DNA of 64,000 nt from Patescibacteria group bacterium (GTDB lineage: Bacteria; Patescibacteriota; Patescibacteriia; Veblenbacterales; UBA10138). The notes under the pieces were generated by a model that was not told the origin of the DNA, made no database searches, and saw only the letters and a program-made list of their open reading frames with translations. Made by a program: the position numbers and the translations under genes. Shown here piece after piece: positions 3,790-60,756 of the stretch; position 1 is the first letter of the stretch, and each line of letters starts with the position of its first letter. The stretch covers positions 31,298-95,297 of the forward strand of contig JBAZOT010000001.1 in the NCBI GenBank assembly GCA_041648575.1. Reading direction: 5' to 3'.

Positions 3790-3818
3790 TTGACAGTTGT
3801 ATTATTGTGGTGTAAAAT
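3790..3818 (+). promoter_or_regulatory. Sigma70-type promoter for the mraZ operon: -35 TTGACA (3790-3795), 17-bp spacer, -10 TAAAAT (3813-3818)
   Basis: Consensus -35 with exact 17-nt spacer and a 5/6 -10 hexamer, ~100 bp upstream of the mraZ start. Confidence 0.55.
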
Positions 3819-4354: not shown

Positions 4355-5284
4355 ATGAATACTAAGCATCAGCCCGTTCTTTACACAGAGGCTCTGCAAT
4401 TATTAAAACTTGAAGCCAATGATAATGTTATCGACTGCACAGTTGGGGGAGCTGGTCATAGCGAAGGAATCTTGAAAGCCATAGCGCCCAGAGGAAAACT
4501 ATTGGGATTTGATGCCGACCCTAAGGCCATAAAATTAGTTGAAAAAAAATTAGATCAATATAAAAATCGAGTTACCTTAATTAATTCATCGTTTAGTAAA
4601 TTAGAATATTATGTGGGTCGCTATAATTTTAAGCCTGTGGTTGCCATCCTTTTGGACCTTGGTTGGTCAACCGACCAATTGGTCAATAATAATAGAGGAT
4701 TTTCTTACCAAACAAACGGGTATCTAGACTTACGTTATAATTCGGCTCAAGGTAGAACAGCGGCTGATATCTTAAATCAGGAAACAGAAAAAAATTTACA
4801 ATTGATTTTTAAAAATTACGCTGACGAGCGATTTGCTTTGCCGCTGGCTCGGGCAATAATCCAACAACGGAAAAAGAAGAAATTTGACCGCACTCAAGAC
4901 TTATTGGACGTTATTTATCAAATTAAAAAAGTGAAACGCGGTCAACTGCATCCGGCAACAAAAATTTGGCAAGCATTAAGAATCGCCGTCAATGATGAAT
5001 TTGAAGAGTTAAGGAAAACAATGCCTCAGGCCCTCAATGTCTTAAAGAAACACGGTAGGCTAGCTATTATCAGTTTTCATTCGGGAGAGGATAGAATAAT
5101 TAAAAATTTTATTAAAACTGAGTCAAGAGATTGTCTTTGCTCACCAGAAGTACCCGTTTGCCGCTGCCAGCATCAAGCAAGTTTACGACTAATAACCCGT
5201 AAAGCAATCAAACCTACTTTAAAAGAAATAATAATTAATCCTAGTTCGCATAGCGCTCACTTGCGAATAATGGAAAAAATATAA
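4355..5284 (+). CDS. rsmH: 16S rRNA (cytosine1402-N4)-methyltransferase RsmH (MraW)
   Basis: HQPVL…DCTVGGAGHSEGIL SAM-binding motif; position after mraZ. Confidence 0.9.
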   Translation: MNTKHQPVLYTEALQLLKLEANDNVIDCTVGGAGHSEGILKAIAPRGKLLGFDADPKAIKLVEKKLDQYKNRVTLINSSFSKLEYYVGRYNFKPVVAILLDLGWSTDQLVNNNRGFSYQTNGYLDLRYNSAQGRTAADILNQETEKNLQLIFKNYADERFALPLARAIIQQRKKKKFDRTQDLLDVIYQIKKVKRGQLHPATKIWQALRIAVNDEFEELRKTMPQALNVLKKHGRLAIISFHSGEDRIIKNFIKTESRDCLCSPEVPVCRCQHQASLRLITRKAIKPTLKEIIINPSSHSAHLRIMEKI

Positions 5285-8695: not shown

Positions 8696-9643
8696 ATGTC
8701 AAAAATTTTAATCACTGGAGCTTTTGGACAAATTGGTAGTGAATTAGTTCCAGTACTTCAGCAAAAATATGGATTGGATAATGTTATCGCTGCTGGTCAC
8801 AGCAATTTACCCGAAAAATTTGTCGGAATATCGGAAAAAATATCAATTTCCGATACTAGTTCATTGAATGATGTAATAAAAAAATACAACATTGATACTA
8901 TTTATCATTTAGCATCATTCCTTTCGGCTAAGTGTGAGCGTGATCCGGATTTAGCTTGGCAAGTGAATATGGGTGGTCTAAAAAATATTTTAGACCTTGC
9001 ACGTGATAAAAAGTTAAAGGTTTTTTGGCCCAGTTCAATAGGAGCGTTTGGACCAACTACACCAAAAATTAATACACCTCAGCATACAATTATGGAGCCC
9101 ACAACAATTTATGGCGTTACCAAACTGGCTGGCGAATTATTATGTCAGTATTATTTTTTGAAATACGGCGTCGATGTTAGGAGTGTACGCTATCCTGGTA
9201 TTATCACGTATAAAACAGAGCCGTCTGACGGAACAACAGAATATTCTATAACAATGTTATATGAGGCAGCTAAAGGGGTTAAAGTTTTTAGTTGTTTTTT
9301 AACTGACAATACCTTATTGCCAATGATGTATATTGATGATGCTATTTGGGCGACAATTGCCTTAATGGATGCACCAGCAGAAAATATAAAAATTAGAACC
9401 AGTTATAATTTAGCTGCTATTAGTTTTTCACCCAAAGAATTATTACAGGAAATAAATAAATATATTCCGGATTTTGTTTGTGAATATAAGCCAGATTTTC
9501 ATCAAGCTATTGCTGATTCCTGGCCAAAGACTATTAATGATAATGAGGCCAGAGAGCAATGGGGTTGGGGTCATCAATATGATTTAACCAAAATGACCAA
9601 ATTGATTTTGGATAAATTAAGGGAAAAATTTGGGAAGTCTTGA
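8696..9643 (+). CDS. tdh: NAD-dependent epimerase/dehydratase-family L-threonine 3-dehydrogenase
   Basis: ILITGAFGQIGSEL Rossmann motif, YxxxK (YGVTKLAGE), and GVDVRSVRYPGII / IADSWP blocks characteristic of the short-chain UDP-Gal-epimerase-like TDH family (recalled from memory, not searched). Confidence 0.65.
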   Translation: MSKILITGAFGQIGSELVPVLQQKYGLDNVIAAGHSNLPEKFVGISEKISISDTSSLNDVIKKYNIDTIYHLASFLSAKCERDPDLAWQVNMGGLKNILDLARDKKLKVFWPSSIGAFGPTTPKINTPQHTIMEPTTIYGVTKLAGELLCQYYFLKYGVDVRSVRYPGIITYKTEPSDGTTEYSITMLYEAAKGVKVFSCFLTDNTLLPMMYIDDAIWATIALMDAPAENIKIRTSYNLAAISFSPKELLQEINKYIPDFVCEYKPDFHQAIADSWPKTINDNEAREQWGWGHQYDLTKMTKLILDKLREKFGKS

Positions 9644-9805: not shown

Positions 9806-9880
9806 GGCGCATTCGTCTAGTGGCTAGGACACATGGTTCTCATCCATGCAACAGGGGTTCGATTCCCCTATGCGCTACCA
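9806..9880 (+). tRNA. tRNA-Glu (anticodon CUC), CCA encoded
   Basis: Cloverleaf folds by hand: acceptor GGCGCAT/ATGCGCT, D-arm TCGTCTAGTGGCTAGGAC, anticodon stem CATGG/CCATG with loop TTCTCAT, T-arm GGGGTTCGATTCCCC, discriminator A, CCA. Closely parallels E. coli tRNA-Glu. Confidence 0.85.
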
Positions 9881-21443: not shown

Positions 21444-22507
21444 AGATCATATTAAGCGGTGGTGGTACTTTGGGTTCTGTTACGCCTTTATTGGCGTTGG
21501 TTGATCAGTTAAAACAAGATCAGTCTATTGATTTTTTATGGTTGGGAACCAAAGCGGGCCCAGAACACTTTTTAGTTGAACAGGCACAACTAAAATTTAT
21601 TGCTATTCCTGCGGGCAAGTGGCGCAGATATTTTAGTTTAAAAAATATTTTTGATATATTGAAGGTGTTAACTGGTTTGATTAAGTCTTTGTATTTAATG
21701 TATAAGCTAGATCCTCAAGTTGTAGTGGTAGCTGGCGGATTTGTTGGCGTTCCAGTTGGTTGGGCAGCTTGGGCTTGGGGTGTACCGTTAATTATTCATC
21801 AGCAGGATGTGGAAATTGGTTTAGCAAATCGATTGTTAGGTTGGTGCGCGGCTAAAATCACCACTACTTGGCCTGTAGCTTCTGGTGGTTTTTTTCCTGA
21901 TAAAACAAAAGTTATTGGTACGCCGCTACGGAAAATTTTTCAACAACCAGTTGATAAACAACAGATATTATCTGCCTTGGGATTTAATGAAAACTTACCG
22001 GTTATATTGGTTATTGGTGGTGGTACTGGAGCAGAATTTCTAAATAAATTAATTGCCCAAAATTTAGATGGGTTAAAAAAAGTATGTCAAATAATTCATA
22101 TAACTGGAATAAATAAATCTGCTAATCATAATAGCGACAAGAATTATAAAACTTACGAACTAGTAACAAATAAAATATCTGAATATTTAGCAGTGGCGGA
22201 TTTAGTTTTGAGCAGGGCAGGCATGGGATTAATATCAGAGCTGGCTTATTTTGCTAAGCCTTCAATAATAGTGCCTTTACCAAACACACATCAAGAGAAA
22301 AATGCTCAATATTTACACCAGCATAATGCGGCGTTGGTTATTGAGCAGTCCCAGTTGACTGGAGATAAATTAATTAATATAGTACATAGGCTAAATAGCG
22401 ATCCAGAGTCATTGATTAAGTTAGGAATAAATCTTAAGGCTTTGTTTCCCCAGAACTCTGCTGGTCAACTAGCCGAGATAGTAATGCGGGCTGCAAAAAA
22501 AATATGA
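21440..22507 (+). CDS. murG: UDP-GlcNAc:undecaprenyl-PP-MurNAc-pentapeptide GlcNAc transferase MurG
   Basis: GT28 N-terminal glycine-rich motif (LSGGGTLGSVTP), C-terminal GT-B half. Confidence 0.85.
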   Translation: MKIILSGGGTLGSVTPLLALVDQLKQDQSIDFLWLGTKAGPEHFLVEQAQLKFIAIPAGKWRRYFSLKNIFDILKVLTGLIKSLYLMYKLDPQVVVVAGGFVGVPVGWAAWAWGVPLIIHQQDVEIGLANRLLGWCAAKITTTWPVASGGFFPDKTKVIGTPLRKIFQQPVDKQQILSALGFNENLPVILVIGGGTGAEFLNKLIAQNLDGLKKVCQIIHITGINKSANHNSDKNYKTYELVTNKISEYLAVADLVLSRAGMGLISELAYFAKPSIIVPLPNTHQEKNAQYLHQHNAALVIEQSQLTGDKLINIVHRLNSDPESLIKLGINLKALFPQNSAGQLAEIVMRAAKKI

Positions 22508-24323: not shown

Positions 24324-24415
24324 GGGCCTTATTTTTCGGTGCCTTGCCCTTTGGCACCTCGCATTTTATGAAAGTTTATCACCTTCAATAAAAAGGCATA
24401 TATGCTCCTTTGTTT

Positions 24416-24934
24416 TTATCGATTCAGTGATTTTATTTGTTGCACCAATTCCGCGTGAGGAATGGTGGTTGATCTTGAATCAGTATTTATGTAATAAACT
24501 GATTCAGTATTTTCATTTATTGGTTGATTAGGGACTGTTTGTCCCTTTACTTCCAATTTACCTCGCCAGACTATTCTGGCGGTACGGCCGTGACGCAATT
24601 CCATTGACGCGGAAGCAACAACGCTGTCACGACCGCTGGATGTAATAATACTAACGGTCCAGACTACCTGAACTCGGTAGTCTGCGTATTTGGAATTATA
24701 GCGACGATCAATTGTCGCAATTTCTTTTTGATCCTGTCCAATCATTCCAGGATCAAGGTCATATTCATCTACTAAGCCACCTTCAGCAGAGAATAATCTT
24801 ATTACGATCGATCTCCCCAATGGGTCCCTGTTTTCCATTACATAGGTTACAAAGACCTCTGGTGCGAAAGTAAATCGATCGCAGCCAACTATTAGTGTTA
24901 ATGCTAAAAGCATTAACACAAGTTTCGTTTTCAT
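24416..24934 (-). CDS. Lipoprotein (signal peptide plus lipobox LIVGC), unknown function
   Basis: MKTKLVLMLLALTLIVGC-DR lipobox; RBS AAGGAAG upstream. Local GC ~42-45% against ~33% for the window. Confidence 0.6.
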   Translation of the reverse strand: MKTKLVLMLLALTLIVGCDRFTFAPEVFVTYVMENRDPLGRSIVIRLFSAEGGLVDEYDLDPGMIGQDQKEIATIDRRYNSKYADYRVQVVWTVSIITSSGRDSVVASASMELRHGRTARIVWRGKLEVKGQTVPNQPINENTESVYYINTDSRSTTIPHAELVQQIKSLNR

Positions 24935-24960
24935 TTTTTTCTTCCTTATGATATTATTTT

Positions 24961-25113
24961 TTCTTTCTTATTAATCTGGAGGAAGTGTCTGGATTTATAT
25001 CCGCTGCTCGCGGATGTATCCAAGACTAAGCAATGTCCCAAGTAGCGCCCAGTCGAAACCAAGGCTACTAAAGTAAATTGCCAACTCTCTCCTCCAAGTT
25101 AATAAGAAAGAAA
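24961..25113. repeat. ~153-bp element bounded by ~24-bp imperfect terminal inverted repeats (TTCTTTCTTATTAATCTGGAGGAAG … TCCTCCAAGTTAATAAGAAAGAA) with internal hairpins; MITE-like or a structured 5' leader RNA
   Basis: The inverted arms share a 12/12 identical core (AATAAGAAAGAA) plus flanking matches. An internal GGATTTATATCCGC…GCGGATGTATCC hairpin lies inside. The element sits directly 5' of the lipoprotein start codon on the minus strand. Confidence 0.5.
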
Positions 25114-25206
25114 TTTTGTTAATGAACTTCCCGCCTGAATAAGTAATTTTTATTTACTCAGGTAGGAAGGAGAAAGAGATTTTTTTCTTTCTCCTTTAAG
25201 AAGTGA

Positions 25207-25395
25207 TTATCTGGTGTGAATCGCCGAGATCATGTCTCTGGCTATCAGTACATCAATGACGAGCAGGATGATGCAGATAATCGGCAGTGCGTCTGAGTGA
25301 TTTATCCAAACTTTATTAGCTTGGAGAATGACACCCGTTCCAAGGTTGAGGCATAGAAACAATATCAGTCCTATCCAGAATTTTTCGCGATTCAT
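25207..25395 (-). CDS. Small two-TM membrane protein (62 aa)
   Basis: Two hydrophobic helices. Followed on the minus strand by the GGAGAAAGA…TCTTTCTCC hairpin at 25168-25193. Confidence 0.35.
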   Translation of the reverse strand: MNREKFWIGLILFLCLNLGTGVILQANKVWINHSDALPIICIILLVIDVLIARDMISAIHTR

Positions 25396-25845
25396 TTTTT
25401 TATCCTTATGTAATGAGCAATATGTTAAATAAAAAGGTGTTTATCTCGATATCAGATTGAGCTTGCTTTCCGTATCTGCTAATTCGACCCAGTAAATATT
25501 TTTTTATTATCGCTTATTCGACTGCGATTCAGATACACCCAAATTTATGAGCTTATTCATGAATGAATATTAACGGGACAAGCTGCAACCGGTTGTGCTT
25601 GCCAAATACTGATACCTAGATAAACACCTTTAGTTTAGCCCCAAGCACCTGGGTTGTTTCTGGATTTTAATTTAACAGTTTAGTATAGGGTATAATGATA
25701 TTTTTGTCAATAGTTATGGAACAATAGTTATTAAACCCCTTTGTTTTTAGGCTCCAATTAATCTTTTATTGCTAAATTTAGCCAAAAAGCATGGTTAATT
25801 AGTTGATTGTTCCACCAACTTAAACTAGTCTTAAAATAGGATATT

Positions 25846-26826
25846 ATGAAAGACATATTTGACACTCTAAAAGAAAATATTGGGTCGAACATTAAACTTA
25901 ACGAGTCGCTTAGTAGGCATACTAACTTTAAAATAGGTGGGCCAGCTAAATATTATTTTGAGGCATTGACTAGTACTGATTTGGAGCGTGCTGTTCAAAC
26001 TGCGCGTGAGTTGCAAATTCCAACAATAGTGCTTGGGGGAGGGGCTAATGTATTGGTGTCGGATAATGGTTTTGCAGGTTTGGTTATTATTGCTAAAAAT
26101 CAAATCTGGTCGATCAATGGTAATTTAGTTAGCGCCGAAGCTGGGGTGAATTTGGGTTTTTTAGTTTCACAAACCGTATCTGCAGGCTTGGCAGGGCTTG
26201 AACCTTTGGTAGCAATTCCTGGATCAGTAGGCGGCGCGGTTTATGGTAATGCTGGATTGCCGCAAATAGCCAAAGGATGTATTGGCGATTGGATTTATGA
26301 AGTAACAGTTTTGGGTGATGATAAAATTGTTAAGCTGAATAACAAGCAGTGCAAATTTAGTTATCGTAACTCGTTATTTAAACAAACCAAAGACATAATA
26401 TTAAGCGTTATTTTAGAATTGAAGCCAGCAGATAAGTTGGTAAGTGAAAAATTAATTAAAAAATATATTGCCCAAAGAAAAGGCCAGCCGTATCATCTTC
26501 CATCAACAGGTTGCATTTTTACAAATGTGGAAGTAAAAACTAAAAAACAAGAAGCAGAAATCAAAAATAAAATAACTAGCGAGCCGAAGCTAGATGATTT
26601 CTTATTACGTGGGCAAATTCCTGCCGGTTGGCTAATTGAACTAGCTGGATTAAAAGGAAAAATTATCGGTGGGGTACAGGTGTCAACCGATCATGCAAAT
26701 TATATTGTTAATATAAATAATGCCAAAGCTGAACACGTGGTTATGCTGATTTCTTTTATTAAGCAGCAAGTGCGTGATAAATTTGGAATTCAATTAAAAG
26801 AAGAGGTACAGTATATTGGGTTTTAA
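25846..26826 (+). CDS. murB: UDP-N-acetylenolpyruvoylglucosamine reductase MurB
   Basis: FAD-binding PCMH domain (NFKIGGPAKYY…LGGGANVLVSD), MurB C-terminal domain with conserved Ser (PSTGCIF). Confidence 0.8.
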   Translation: MKDIFDTLKENIGSNIKLNESLSRHTNFKIGGPAKYYFEALTSTDLERAVQTARELQIPTIVLGGGANVLVSDNGFAGLVIIAKNQIWSINGNLVSAEAGVNLGFLVSQTVSAGLAGLEPLVAIPGSVGGAVYGNAGLPQIAKGCIGDWIYEVTVLGDDKIVKLNNKQCKFSYRNSLFKQTKDIILSVILELKPADKLVSEKLIKKYIAQRKGQPYHLPSTGCIFTNVEVKTKKQEAEIKNKITSEPKLDDFLLRGQIPAGWLIELAGLKGKIIGGVQVSTDHANYIVNINNAKAEHVVMLISFIKQQVRDKFGIQLKEEVQYIGF

Positions 26827-38758: not shown

Positions 38759-39397
38759 TTATTTTAATTTATTTAAAATAAATCCGCCATTTGGTAAATA
38801 GCGGATTTTTTTAAGACGCGGATCAGGTTTTGGTTTTTCCTGATCAAATATTGTTTTAACCTCAAGATTTTTTAAAAATCTTAAAGTTAATAATTCTTGG
38901 GAAGATTTTTTCCAGATTTGTCCAAAGTCACCAATTGTGCCCTTGTTGGTTAGGGTATTAGAAACTTCAAAATGAATAGTAGTTTCTCTGTCGTCAACTT
39001 TTAATGTCCAGGGGCTCTTTTTAAGGGTGGCAAAGTATTTAGCATCAATGATGTCTAATGGAAAATTAAAAACAAAATTTATTTTTCCTTCTACTACATC
39101 CAAAGTCCAGTAGATTGGATTTTTTAATGAATCAGAATTTAAGTAGGTTCCTGTCCCCCAGCAAATAATTCCAGTAGACCTTTCTGCTTGGTAATTTTTC
39201 TGCTCATGAAAAATTGTTTTTAGTACGTGGATATCGATTACTTGATGTTCAATGAAATCGGGTAATTCTATTAATTCTGATTGCGCCCAGGTAATTTGCC
39301 CTAGCAACAAAATCATTAAGATTATTAAAATAACGATTTTCATCTTGTGTCTCCTTTTTATTGTAATTGTGTTTGTTTGAATGCACTTTATAATCAA
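38759..39397 (-). CDS. Secreted hypothetical protein (signal peptide; true start probably MKIVIL at ~39343)
   Basis: Sec signal MKIVILIILMILLLGQITWAQSE; no other recognised domain. Confidence 0.4.
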   Translation of the reverse strand: MIIKCIQTNTITIKRRHKMKIVILIILMILLLGQITWAQSELIELPDFIEHQVIDIHVLKTIFHEQKNYQAERSTGIICWGTGTYLNSDSLKNPIYWTLDVVEGKINFVFNFPLDIIDAKYFATLKKSPWTLKVDDRETTIHFEVSNTLTNKGTIGDFGQIWKKSSQELLTLRFLKNLEVKTIFDQEKPKPDPRLKKIRYLPNGGFILNKLK

Positions 39398-39469
39398 ATT
39401 TATAATTTGTCAATCAATAAGGTAACGCTTGCTAGATGATTGAGGAAATGTTAAGATTTAAGCAAATTT

Positions 39470-43678: not shown

Positions 43679-43783
43679 TAGCATTAATAATGTACAGTTA
43701 ATCAAATTTCCTTGTCAACGATTTACTAATATGTTACTATATTCCTGTTACCTCGGGTTTTCCCTTGGTATTTTTTCTCAAAA

Positions 43784-53629: not shown

Positions 53630-54463
53630 TTACAGATATACCTGAACGTACAAATTCGTGAGCTTAGAATGATATTGCCATCCCATTCCCACGAGTGTCT
53701 GAATGCCGTTTGGCCCCTGATAGACCTTAGTCCACCCGAGTTCCAGGTGGTCGAACGAGCGACTGTATTTGTTGTAGTTTGCCGTAACATAGGGGGCAAA
53801 CCATTTTGCGCGATATTCAACAAATCCGGTTGTGACCTTGTCATTCGCAACGAACCATTTCAGGGTCATTTCATCACATTCCACACCCGCTGCAATTCCT
53901 TTCCTCACTGTACTCGCAAATCCTCCGAGTTTGAGTGTGCCCAAAACAGTTTTCTGTTCGAGACACGCGTTCCATTCAATTTTTTTGTGGGGAGCTAAAT
54001 AGTAGCTTCCAACCTGGATAAATGGTCCATTAGCAAACTGCCGCGAGATTGCGAGTCCCGTTCCAACTCCGGGTATTGCCGCAATTGCTGGGGGTTCGAA
54101 GTGACCGCCCGACGTGAGTGGCATAGGCCGCATGATGAGCGTAATAGGACGAGGCATAAACCCTCCGGCGATTTTTATGGTTCCGAAATCCTTCGAAAGC
54201 ACGAACTTTCCGAAAACCGAATTACTGCTGGGAGAGAAGTCGTACCCTGCCCATGCACCCAGCTCAATGCTCTCAAATAGTGGGGCGGTAAAATCGCCAC
54301 CAACCCGAATACTTGCCTCGTGTGTGATCGTCAACTCGCTGTTGTAGCTACCGGTATAGAGGATGCCGGCGTATGTTTTCGTAACCTTAAGCGAGTCAAG
54401 TTGAGCAAAAGAAAAAGCGGTAAAAGCGAGAAGCAGCGTGAAAACAACAATAAGGTGTTTCAT
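53630..54463 (-). CDS. Outer-membrane beta-barrel-like protein (Sec signal peptide plus amphipathic beta-strand pattern), in a GC-rich (~50%) islet
   Basis: Start MKHLIVVFTLLLAFTAFSFA-QL (signal peptide, AXA-type cleavage), RBS AAAGAGGA. Body shows alternating hydrophobic/aromatic residues with frequent G/Y/F/W and a C-terminal …YVQVYL. GC markedly above the window average. The overlapping ORFs 53473-53850 and 53669-53998 are judged spurious. Confidence 0.5.
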   Translation of the reverse strand: MKHLIVVFTLLLAFTAFSFAQLDSLKVTKTYAGILYTGSYNSELTITHEASIRVGGDFTAPLFESIELGAWAGYDFSPSSNSVFGKFVLSKDFGTIKIAGGFMPRPITLIMRPMPLTSGGHFEPPAIAAIPGVGTGLAISRQFANGPFIQVGSYYLAPHKKIEWNACLEQKTVLGTLKLGGFASTVRKGIAAGVECDEMTLKWFVANDKVTTGFVEYRAKWFAPYVTANYNKYSRSFDHLELGWTKVYQGPNGIQTLVGMGWQYHSKLTNLYVQVYL

Positions 54464-54627
54464 AATATATCCTCTTTTTTTGTTAAGGAACTCTTGGGAT
54501 CTGCCCAAGTCAGTGCAAGTTTATCTTGCTAATAAATTACAATTTTCTATTTTTATTTAATAAATTAGTATAGACCTTAAGCTAATTTTTGTCAAGCGAA
54601 TGCTGTTAATGCTATACTTATTGTGCT

Positions 54628-60623: not shown

Positions 60624-60756
60624 GTTTTGTTTTTCATTAGTTATTTTGTTTTAAAATCAATTAAGTCTAGCAAGGAGATGTTTATTTGTCAAGAGTTAGA
60701 ATAATTGCAATAATTAGAATAGATTGCTTCACCCCGTCTGACGGGGTTCGCAATGA

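Follow-up and report, generated by a model that had tools for sequence, protein, structure and literature searches.

The described systems closest to the element reported here are the leader-trailer stalks of rRNA transcripts, in whose leaders boxB precedes boxA, and mRNA leaders that are processed by RNase III or act as 5' stabilisers, among them S. aureus cspA, E. coli pnp/rnc, the sites of phages T7 and SP82 and the STAB-SD of B. thuringiensis cryIIIA. In leaders of the second kind, processing and half-life are set by a long stable duplex and/or by an SD-like polypurine tract well ahead of the SD. We know of almost no regulatory RNAs described in the Patescibacteria/CPR, whose genomes are tiny.

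The element lies within the cell-wall (dcw) cluster of the window, by which we mean the whole 64-kb stretch of DNA analyzed. It is one of two adjacent RNA structures, the other being called RNA-A here, that are both better conserved than the neighbouring proteins and are both placed ahead of fast-evolving surface lipoproteins and membrane proteins. With the rRNA leader-trailer stalks and their boxB-boxA the locus shares a strong consensus promoter, a hairpin, a boxA-like GYUCUUUAACAA and a long-range helix of about 25 bp around a folded RNA, and both are long untranslated transcripts; the difference is that the RNA enclosed here is about 105 nt long, is not rRNA (no Rfam 5S/16S match) and is followed by a protein-coding gene. 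The long stable duplex and/or the SD-like polypurine tract well upstream of the SD are shared with the cspA, pnp, T7, SP82 and STAB-SD leaders, but those are simple hairpins or short motifs, whereas the element adds two conserved hairpins and has its GGAGG locked in a helix. A structured leader or processing stalk is of a known kind; the architecture and the clade are new. Both the element and RNA-A are absent from Rfam, and a literature search found no description of either.

Position and fold of the element

A repeat search placed the arms of the element at 24960-24983 and 25090-25113, each 24 nt long, 92% complementary and spaced 106 nt apart, and the arm pattern occurred twice in the 64-kb window against 0.00 expected. 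The original prediction of inverted-repeat arms of about 24 bp was borne out, except that it had described minor indels; there were none, the arms differing by two substitutions. The inner hairpin GGATTTATATCCGC/GCGGATGTATCC that it had placed between the arms was located at 24991-25021, its single occurrence in the window. A closed multi-stem RNA on the minus strand had also been proposed, and the minus-strand fold of a 176-nt stretch agreed with this, having an energy of -64.8 kcal/mol (z = -7.9 against dinucleotide shuffles); the plus-strand fold of the same stretch gave -59.7 kcal/mol (z = -7.0).

In the minus-strand fold a P1 helix of about 25 bp (25089-25113 with 24960-24984) closes a three-way junction that carries P2 and P3. 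Fold and alignment together divide the 5' strand of P1 (25089-25113, minus strand) into a pyrimidine-rich, covarying lower part, UUUCUUUCUUAUUAA, and a purine-rich, nearly invariant upper part, UUGGAGGAG; the 3' strand (24960-24984, minus strand) reads CUUCCUCCAG A UUAAUAAGAAAGAAA and holds an invariant CCUCC. Between the upper and lower helix sits a conserved C•A / U•G irregularity, alignment column 21/227 being unpaired (C•A) in most sequences and column 22-226 being U·G or C-G. J1/2 (25083-25088, minus strand) is the purine-rich single strand AGAGUU. P2 (25029-25082, minus strand) is a long irregular hairpin with the apex YUGGU-N4-ACUGR, whose tandem U·G/G·U pairs are kept in 8-9 of 10 sequences, and P3 (24987-25026, minus strand) is a hairpin with the A-rich asymmetric internal loop AUAA that contains the inner hairpin named above. 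The G•A pairs needed for a K-turn or loop E in P2 or P3 are not conserved.

Three resemblances were considered and set aside. 5S rRNA has the same topology, an end-closed three-way junction, but there was no Rfam match and the CCGAAC and loop E motifs were lacking. Likenesses to RNase P CR-I and to the 16S 5' AGAGUU were supported by no covariance model.

The lipoprotein gene (24416-24934, minus strand) encodes a fast-evolving protein of 172 aa with the lipobox LIVGC. Its SD, AAGGAAG (24941-24947, minus strand), and its ATG (24932-24934, minus strand) are reached from P1 via a 12-nt A/U-rich linker and lie 13-28 nt beyond the 3' arm; no terminator was found between P1 and the SD in the window. 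The 5' arm in the window is able to pair alternatively with the SD region.

Conservation, covariation and strand

The lipoprotein is an orphan: a search of 5.8 billion proteins gave a single homologue, at 51% identity. Syntenic loci, which are denoted by L numbers, were fetched via this homologue and via MurB homologues (59-76% identity), and share the gene order murC – small minus-strand gene(s) – long gap – murB. The element was detected by blastn, nhmmer and a covariance model once in each of 10 further distinct genomes, and its position in all of them was murC – small envelope gene – element – RNA-A – murB, in the same orientation and directly before the small gene, the exception being L025, which is without RNA-A. 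The sample comprises 11 distinct sequences of a single clade. Two source organisms bear the names Candidatus Kerfeldbacteria and Candidatus Veblenbacteria; NCBI taxonomy lists these as distinct candidate phyla within the Parcubacteria group. Since the element of L002 is 92% identical to that of the window, compared with 76% for MurB (protein) and 51% for the lipoprotein, and the surrounding sequence is unalignable, the element is under stronger constraint than its neighbours.

When the 11 homologues were folded singly, each showed the same P1/P2/P3 architecture with a P1 of 25-28 bp. In every homologue the P1 double strand consists of 15 bp, the C•A and a further 9-11 bp, a length that corresponds to an RNase III stalk (at least about 20 near-continuous bp). 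Ten sequences were aligned with MAFFT, and the RNAalifold consensus had 33 pairs surviving the alignment. Standard pairs occupied 93.0% of the cells, against 43-57% with the partners slid by 1-3 columns. Covariation, which the original prediction had suggested checking, was found as compensatory changes at 16 pairs, and none of 500 shuffles matched the observed values. In lower P1, taken by itself, 13/19 pairs were compensatory; P2 was 93% paired, with compensatory change at 3 pairs, and for the lower parts of P2 and P3 the covariation support comes from the individual folds and not from the alignment test. Nearly invariant were the upper 9-11 bp of P1 (GGAGG.../...CCUCC), with the GGAGG kept in 10/10 sequences, the irregularity below them and the P2 apex UGGU/ACUG with its tandem wobbles.

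The best-conserved part of the element is the top of P1 and not the junction. J1/2 reads AGAGUU or AAAAAA or bears a hairpin, and six relatives carry an additional hairpin, P1a, at this place, which makes the junction four-way. One additional hairpin stands 3' of P3 in L018, P3 itself is replaced in the distant relatives by an 8-bp stem, an AAA bulge and GCC-UUCG-GGC, and the hairpin loops are variable. A frame of 31 codons starting from the UUG after GGAGG was discarded as a coding sequence; the changes in L002 are mostly non-synonymous and the hairpin insertions of other relatives break the frame.

These features bear on the proposal that the element is a cis-regulatory RNA whose P1 is made by the arms. 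Covariation, G·U bias and fixed position uphold a structured leader RNA on the minus strand, but not the label of riboswitch. Purine, TPP, lysine and other riboswitch aptamers likewise have an end-made helix that closes a multi-way junction in a leader before the SD. As a sensor, the RNA would bind a ligand or protein at the junction, P2 or P3 and so alter translation of the envelope gene, for example by a freed CCUCC of the 3' arm masking the SD. The conserved multi-stem fold directly before the SD is what such a sensor would have, as are the invariant GGAGG paired to an invariant, anti-SD-like CCUCC 45-60 nt ahead of the start codon, the alternative pairing of the 5' arm seen in the window and the small envelope proteins encoded downstream in every locus. 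That alternative pairing is, however, not conserved in L006 or L014, and a P1 of 25-28 bp exceeds the length of a switch helix 3-5 times. Such a helix is far too stable to come apart when a ligand is lost, and it would already be in place by the time RNA polymerase reaches the SD. No switchable expression platform was recognized, as no terminator follows P1 and the SD lies outside the structure. Nor are there riboswitch-like conserved junction or pocket nucleotides across the family, J1/2 and J3/1 varying by subgroup and accepting the inserted hairpin, the loop sequences varying, and two subgroups building P3 differently. The downstream genes form no coherent gene set and there is no Rfam family. 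Because of the 25-28-bp P1, the variable junction, the two builds of P3 and the differing kinds of downstream genes, a metabolite switch and with it a classical riboswitch is unlikely, and we regard a sensor of any kind as rather improbable.

The strand was judged from several asymmetries. In the alignment G·U cells numbered 49 and A·C cells 11, the sense fold was more stable than the antisense fold in 10/11 sequences, and RNAalifold gave -56.9 kcal/mol with 59 pairs for the sense and -47.9 kcal/mol with 49 pairs for the antisense. Because G·U exceeds A·C, the sense fold is the stabler and a conserved sigma-70 promoter lies upstream on that strand, the RNA is assigned to the minus strand, which is the lipoprotein sense. 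The opposite assignment would be a plus-strand antisense sRNA that starts from the extended -10 TGATATTAT (24949-24957), ends at UUUUGUU (25114-25120) and acts on the lipoprotein leader. It could draw on a promoter-like site at 24928-24957, a conserved short U-run 3' of the stem on the plus strand and the plus-strand z-score of -7.0. In this A/T-rich region, however, promoter-like matches are no more numerous than chance would give (5 found, 5.4 expected), and L002 has not kept the -10. P2 fails on the plus strand, where its G·U pairs become A·C, the antisense covariance model reaches 34 bits where the sense one reaches 186 bits, and the conserved U-run is better read as the complement of a boxA-like motif. 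We consider such an sRNA very improbable.

Copy number and database searches

The inverted repeats had been given a second reading, that of a miniature inverted-repeat transposable element (MITE) inserted in the leader, for which several copies and target-site duplications (TSD) would be expected; a single conserved copy upstream of homologous genes would point to a regulatory RNA. A blastn search of the element against the 64-kb window returned the self-match only, and a covariance model built from five homologues and run unfiltered over the window scored 186.5 bits at the element and 19 bits at the next distinct site. Across 190 kb of related loci there was one copy per locus, counted per stretch of 10-64 kb rather than per complete genome, and this copy always preceded a small envelope gene, in seven loci a homologous lipoprotein. 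Neither a target-site duplication was found, the flanks GATATTATTT and TTTTGTTAAT having just a T-run in common, nor any element-like sequence in collections of plasmids, phages and viral contigs.

The element resembles MITEs in its size (153 bp), its 24-nt terminal inverted repeats and its intergenic position, and the same reading would extend to any other DNA-level palindrome, such as a transposon remnant, a recombination site or a cruciform. It differs from them in being single copy in the window and in the relatives, and in having no TSD. Its terminal sequence is not fixed but covaries between the arms, with both sides changed in 13 of the 19 lower pairs, and the strand-specific wobbles (49:11 for G·U against A·C) are an asymmetry not expected of DNA structure. 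The same syntenic, orthologous site is moreover filled in 11/11 genomes. The MITE reading is refuted as far as computational tests allow, and a DNA-level palindrome of whatever sort has a negligible probability. The element is firmly shown to be a single-copy, conserved, structured RNA domain of the minus strand.

Rfam 15 gave no match in the window at gathering thresholds, none at E<=10 in the 1.5 kb of 24400-25900 or in the 191-nt element slice alone, and none in seven related loci, in keeping with the earlier remark that no known riboswitch consensus could be recognized. JGI metagenome contigs were scanned with the exact pattern TTTCTTTCN{7,11}TGGAGGNGAGAGTT, and the only two matches were chance ones within coding DNA; the pattern was too strict, as it missed the diverged JGI copies L013, L018, L020 and L025 that were later reached via MurB. 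A MurB search of genome contigs gave two distant Desulfobacterales loci and nothing nearer among the matches listed.

Transcription unit

The element had been placed between the promoter region and the RBS AAGGAAG of the lipoprotein gene. The RBS is where it was said to be, but the nearest sigma-70 promoter does not adjoin the element; this promoter, the consensus TTGACA-17-TATACT at 25682-25710 (minus strand), is about 570 nt upstream and is the sole good minus-strand promoter upstream of the element, none being found between 25113 and 25680. TTGACA-17-TATAnT is kept in 11/11 loci with a perfect -35. A conserved TTGACA/TTAACA just before P1 was tried as an alternative and rejected, as no -10 is present at 16-18 nt.

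Between the promoter and the element lies RNA-A (25430-25675, minus strand), the second conserved structured RNA, which is unannotated. Its parts are a 5' hairpin bearing a GUGCUUG loop, a long-range helix of 21 bp that closes RNA-A and shows compensatory changes, a further hairpin whose loop, AGUCGAAUAA, is conserved, and a U-tract. There was no match of RNA-A to Rfam. A Pistol ribozyme inside RNA-A scored 16 bits against a threshold of 34.5 bits with 35 model positions missing, and was treated as chance.

In L025, where RNA-A is absent, a gap of about 45 nt separates the promoter from P1, and this promoter is predicted to drive the element directly. In L009 and L024 there is no space for a promoter of the element's own, because the element begins right after the U-tract of RNA-A (about 15-25 nt past it). 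The arrangement in L025 and the lack of promoter space in L009 and L024 tie the element to the sigma-70 promoter.

The spacer between RNA-A and the element is variable, from about 15 nt in L009 to about 430 nt in L014. In the window it contains a 62-aa hydrophobic ORF (25207-25395, minus strand) that is not conserved and is absent from L002, and in L018 a 95-aa ORF. Hairpin 1 (25168-25195, minus strand; AAGGAGAAAGA/UCUUUCUCCUU) follows the 62-aa ORF and is weak here, but terminator-like in relatives (in L020, GGGAGCAG..CUGCUCCC + U5). Hairpin 2 (25129-25167, minus strand), with a CUUCC...GGAAG base, stands just 5' of the boxA-like motif described below. At the other end of the element every locus lacks a terminator after P1 and has an A/U-rich linker with an SD and start codon 20-40 nt downstream. 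The order of these signals suggests that the element is transcribed by read-through within a long untranslated leader that runs from the promoter through RNA-A to the small envelope-protein gene.

The gene at the end of this leader is not always the same. The lipoprotein family was found downstream in seven loci, at 20-55% identity (window against L014, pairwise E 7e-10), and the downstream ORF of L018, L021 and L025 is an unrelated small membrane protein; the genes of all loci encode small envelope proteins. Because the downstream ORF differs between loci, the RNA has persisted where its supposed target has been replaced, which speaks for an autonomous function. The element could accordingly be a free-standing, stable, trans-acting ncRNA, such as a 6S-like RNA polymerase decoy or an RNP scaffold, made in one transcript with RNA-A by way of a strong rRNA-type promoter; the long helix joining its ends would be protective and the downstream ORF would merely use the read-through, like ygfA behind 6S RNA. 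Besides the unrelated downstream ORFs, the perfect-consensus promoter in 11/11 loci and the pairing of 5' and 3' ends, typical of stable RNAs, argue for such an RNA.

The comparison with 6S RNA (ssrS) is a loose one. Both have 160-200 nt, a long end-pairing stem, an open purine-rich centre and an irregular distal stem, the G-C-rich top, the purine-rich junction with hairpins and the irregular distal P2 of the element all recalling 6S; 6S RNA is, and the element would be, co-transcribed with a downstream ORF with no terminator between. The literature searched reports no 6S RNA for these bacteria. When the 6S layout was compared, the length and the two long stems fitted, and the 'bubble' corresponded to a 6-nt strand and a hairpin-bearing strand, and the junction is far smaller than the 6S central loop. 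The element does not score with the Rfam 6S models or any other, even at E<=10 on the 191-nt slice, and is restricted to its clade. No terminator or defined 3' end is found past P1, and an SD with an ORF in the same orientation always follows 20-40 nt downstream. The family is also narrow, the scan of JGI contigs having given two chance matches, though with a pattern too strict for diverged members. An ncRNA of this sort is the main rival of the processing or stability cassette favoured below, though less likely than not. The more specific proposal that the element and RNA-A are an undescribed pair of abundant housekeeping-type trans RNAs of Parcubacteria-group CPR bacteria, excised after being made like rRNA with a consensus promoter, boxA and a double-stranded processing stalk, one of them perhaps a 6S-type regulator or the core of a new RNP, is less probable still, and we hold it to be unlikely.

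The boxA-like motif and a possible role of the leader

Directly 5' of P1 lies a conserved, single-stranded, boxA-like motif of 14 nt, GUUCAUUAACAAAA (25114-25127, minus strand), preceded by a hairpin in most loci (Hairpin 2 in the window). The homologous site reads GCUCUUUAAC in L009, GCUCUUUGAC in L006 and GUUCUUUAAC in L020. It was compared with the boxA consensus GYTCTTTAANA of Baniulyte et al. (PMC5725501), which was derived for gamma-proteobacteria and may not be that of this clade; against this gamma-proteobacterial consensus the homologous site is perfect in L009 and L020, has one mismatch in the window, L002 and L006, and has at least two mismatches in L007, L014, L018, L024 and L025. 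Across all fetched loci there were 3 distinct perfect matches, 2 of them at the homologous site before P1. The motif is A/U-rich, and sites with one mismatch are no commoner in the window than by chance (15 found, 22 expected). BoxA is known in mRNA 5' UTRs and ahead of long untranslated CRISPR transcripts, where it counters Rho (PMC5725501, PMC7665894). Rfam detected no rRNA operon in the window or the related loci.

The long double strand, the fixed G/C-rich top, the boxA-like site and the untranslated stretch of 0.2-1 kb lead us to favour, tentatively and with a confidence that falls short of even, a role of the element in processing or stability: it would be a cassette of the long untranslated leader that supplies an RNase III-type stalk, the boxA-like motif standing before it. 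P1 would be a perfect-length double-stranded substrate for RNase III-type cleavage. Cleavage, or the sheer stability of the 5' structure, would set the 5' end and the half-life of the downstream mRNA, and would free or shield a folded core of about 130 nt. The conserved GUUCNUUAACAAAA motif before P1 may act like boxA by loading Nus factors, which would keep Rho from stopping RNA polymerase over the long untranslated stretch. We infer RNase III cleavage, the boxA function, any effect on the mRNA and, for the source genome, read-through from the promoter.

Several observations sit poorly with a processing or stability cassette. Read-through of the terminator-like end of RNA-A has to be assumed, and an RNase III site needs a hairpin only, which leaves the conservation of P2, P3 and the invariant GGAGG/CCUCC unexplained. 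The boxA-like site of the window has one mismatch and a chance-level frequency, and the downstream ORF is unrelated in L018, L021 and L025 as against the lipoprotein of seven loci. If the processing/boxA model is true, these bacteria have turned signals of rRNA-style transcription and maturation to a second use in an mRNA leader; a trans-acting RNA would represent a new stable RNA class. Under either reading, a covariance-model survey and metatranscriptome end-mapping can now start from the motif.

A twin layout is present elsewhere in the window, at 54478-54595 (minus strand), where a promoter of the same type precedes a hairpin and GUUCCUUAACAAAA, with the SD of a gene for a secreted protein next in line. 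A similar motif stands at the 5' end of the Band_7 mRNA in L021.

A second structured RNA upstream of the element

The element, a conserved minus-strand structured RNA in which helix P1 closes hairpins P2 and P3, is preceded by a second conserved structured RNA that carries no annotation (RNA-A, window 25430-25675, minus strand). RNA-A follows a sigma-70 promoter of consensus type, TTGACA-17-TATACT (25682-25710, minus strand). It was found in 10 of the 11 syntenic loci, window included, with a length of 150-270 nt, and gave no match in Rfam. Its 5' hairpin presents GUGCUUG in the loop, and its closing helix is a long-range pairing of 21 bp showing compensatory changes among loci. A further hairpin has a conserved loop, AGUCGAAUAA; some genomes contain its GUCGAAUAAGC motif more than once. 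RNA-A also includes a U-tract. In locus L021 RNA-A could be seen only partly, since the ENA scaffold has stretches of N (4632-4732 and 9433-9522), either gaps or masked sequence, that interrupt it and a neighbouring gene. A Pistol ribozyme hit to the AGUCGAAUAAGCGAUAAUAAA hairpin (window 25491-25523, minus strand) scored 16.1 bits against a threshold of 34.5, with 35 model positions deleted, and was judged to be due to chance.

Between RNA-A and the element, the window has a spacer with a 62-aa ORF (25207-25395, minus strand) that is preceded by an SD and encodes two hydrophobic segments. L002 lacks this ORF, and at the corresponding position L018 has an unrelated 95-aa ORF; small genes seem able to insert into the spacer.

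Junction of the element and downstream gene

In six relatives (L007, L009, L014, L020, L021 and L024) a G+C-rich hairpin, for example GUCCGCC...GGCGGAU, is added between P1 and P2 at J1/2 (9374-9330 in L007), indicating that the junction tolerates a fourth helix. The lipoprotein gene downstream of the element (window 24416-24934, minus strand) has orthologous positions in L002, L006, L007, L009, L014 and L020. Together with the window protein these form a very fast evolving family (20-55% identity) without a Pfam domain, sharing the N-terminal motif C-x4-6-P-x-[IL]-x-V-T-Y-x-M-x-N-x-D. A search among 5.8 billion proteins returned a single match.

Promoters and boxA-like motifs at other leaders

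The window has more perfect TTGACA-N16-18-TAnAnT sites than expected (7 against 1.2), among them those at 3790-3818, 22061-22090, 39385-39413, 43689-43718 and 60664-60692. This suggests that canonical sigma-70 promoters are in use in these bacteria and can be recognised from the sequence. The RNA-A promoter has a twin, TTGACAAAAATTAGCTTAAGGTCTATACT, in the interval 54478-54595 (minus strand). Behind it come the hairpin CUUGGGCAGAUCCCAAG, then GUUCCUUAACAAAA, the motif also found 5' of the element, and then the SD and start codon (ATG) of an ORF for a secreted protein (53630-54463). This boxA-like signal may recur in leaders of this genome. In L021 a Band_7-family gene has a strong promoter of the same design as that of RNA-A, CTTGACAAAAATTACCTGAAGAGCTATAGT (9822-9880, minus strand), and GUUCUUUAAAAA lies exactly at its predicted transcript start. 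GUUCUUUAAAAA matches GYTCTTTAANA perfectly, a boxA consensus derived for gamma-proteobacteria (PMC5725501). The sole Rfam or ARAGORN match across the 64-kb window was a tRNA-Glu (CUC) at 9806-9880 on the plus strand.
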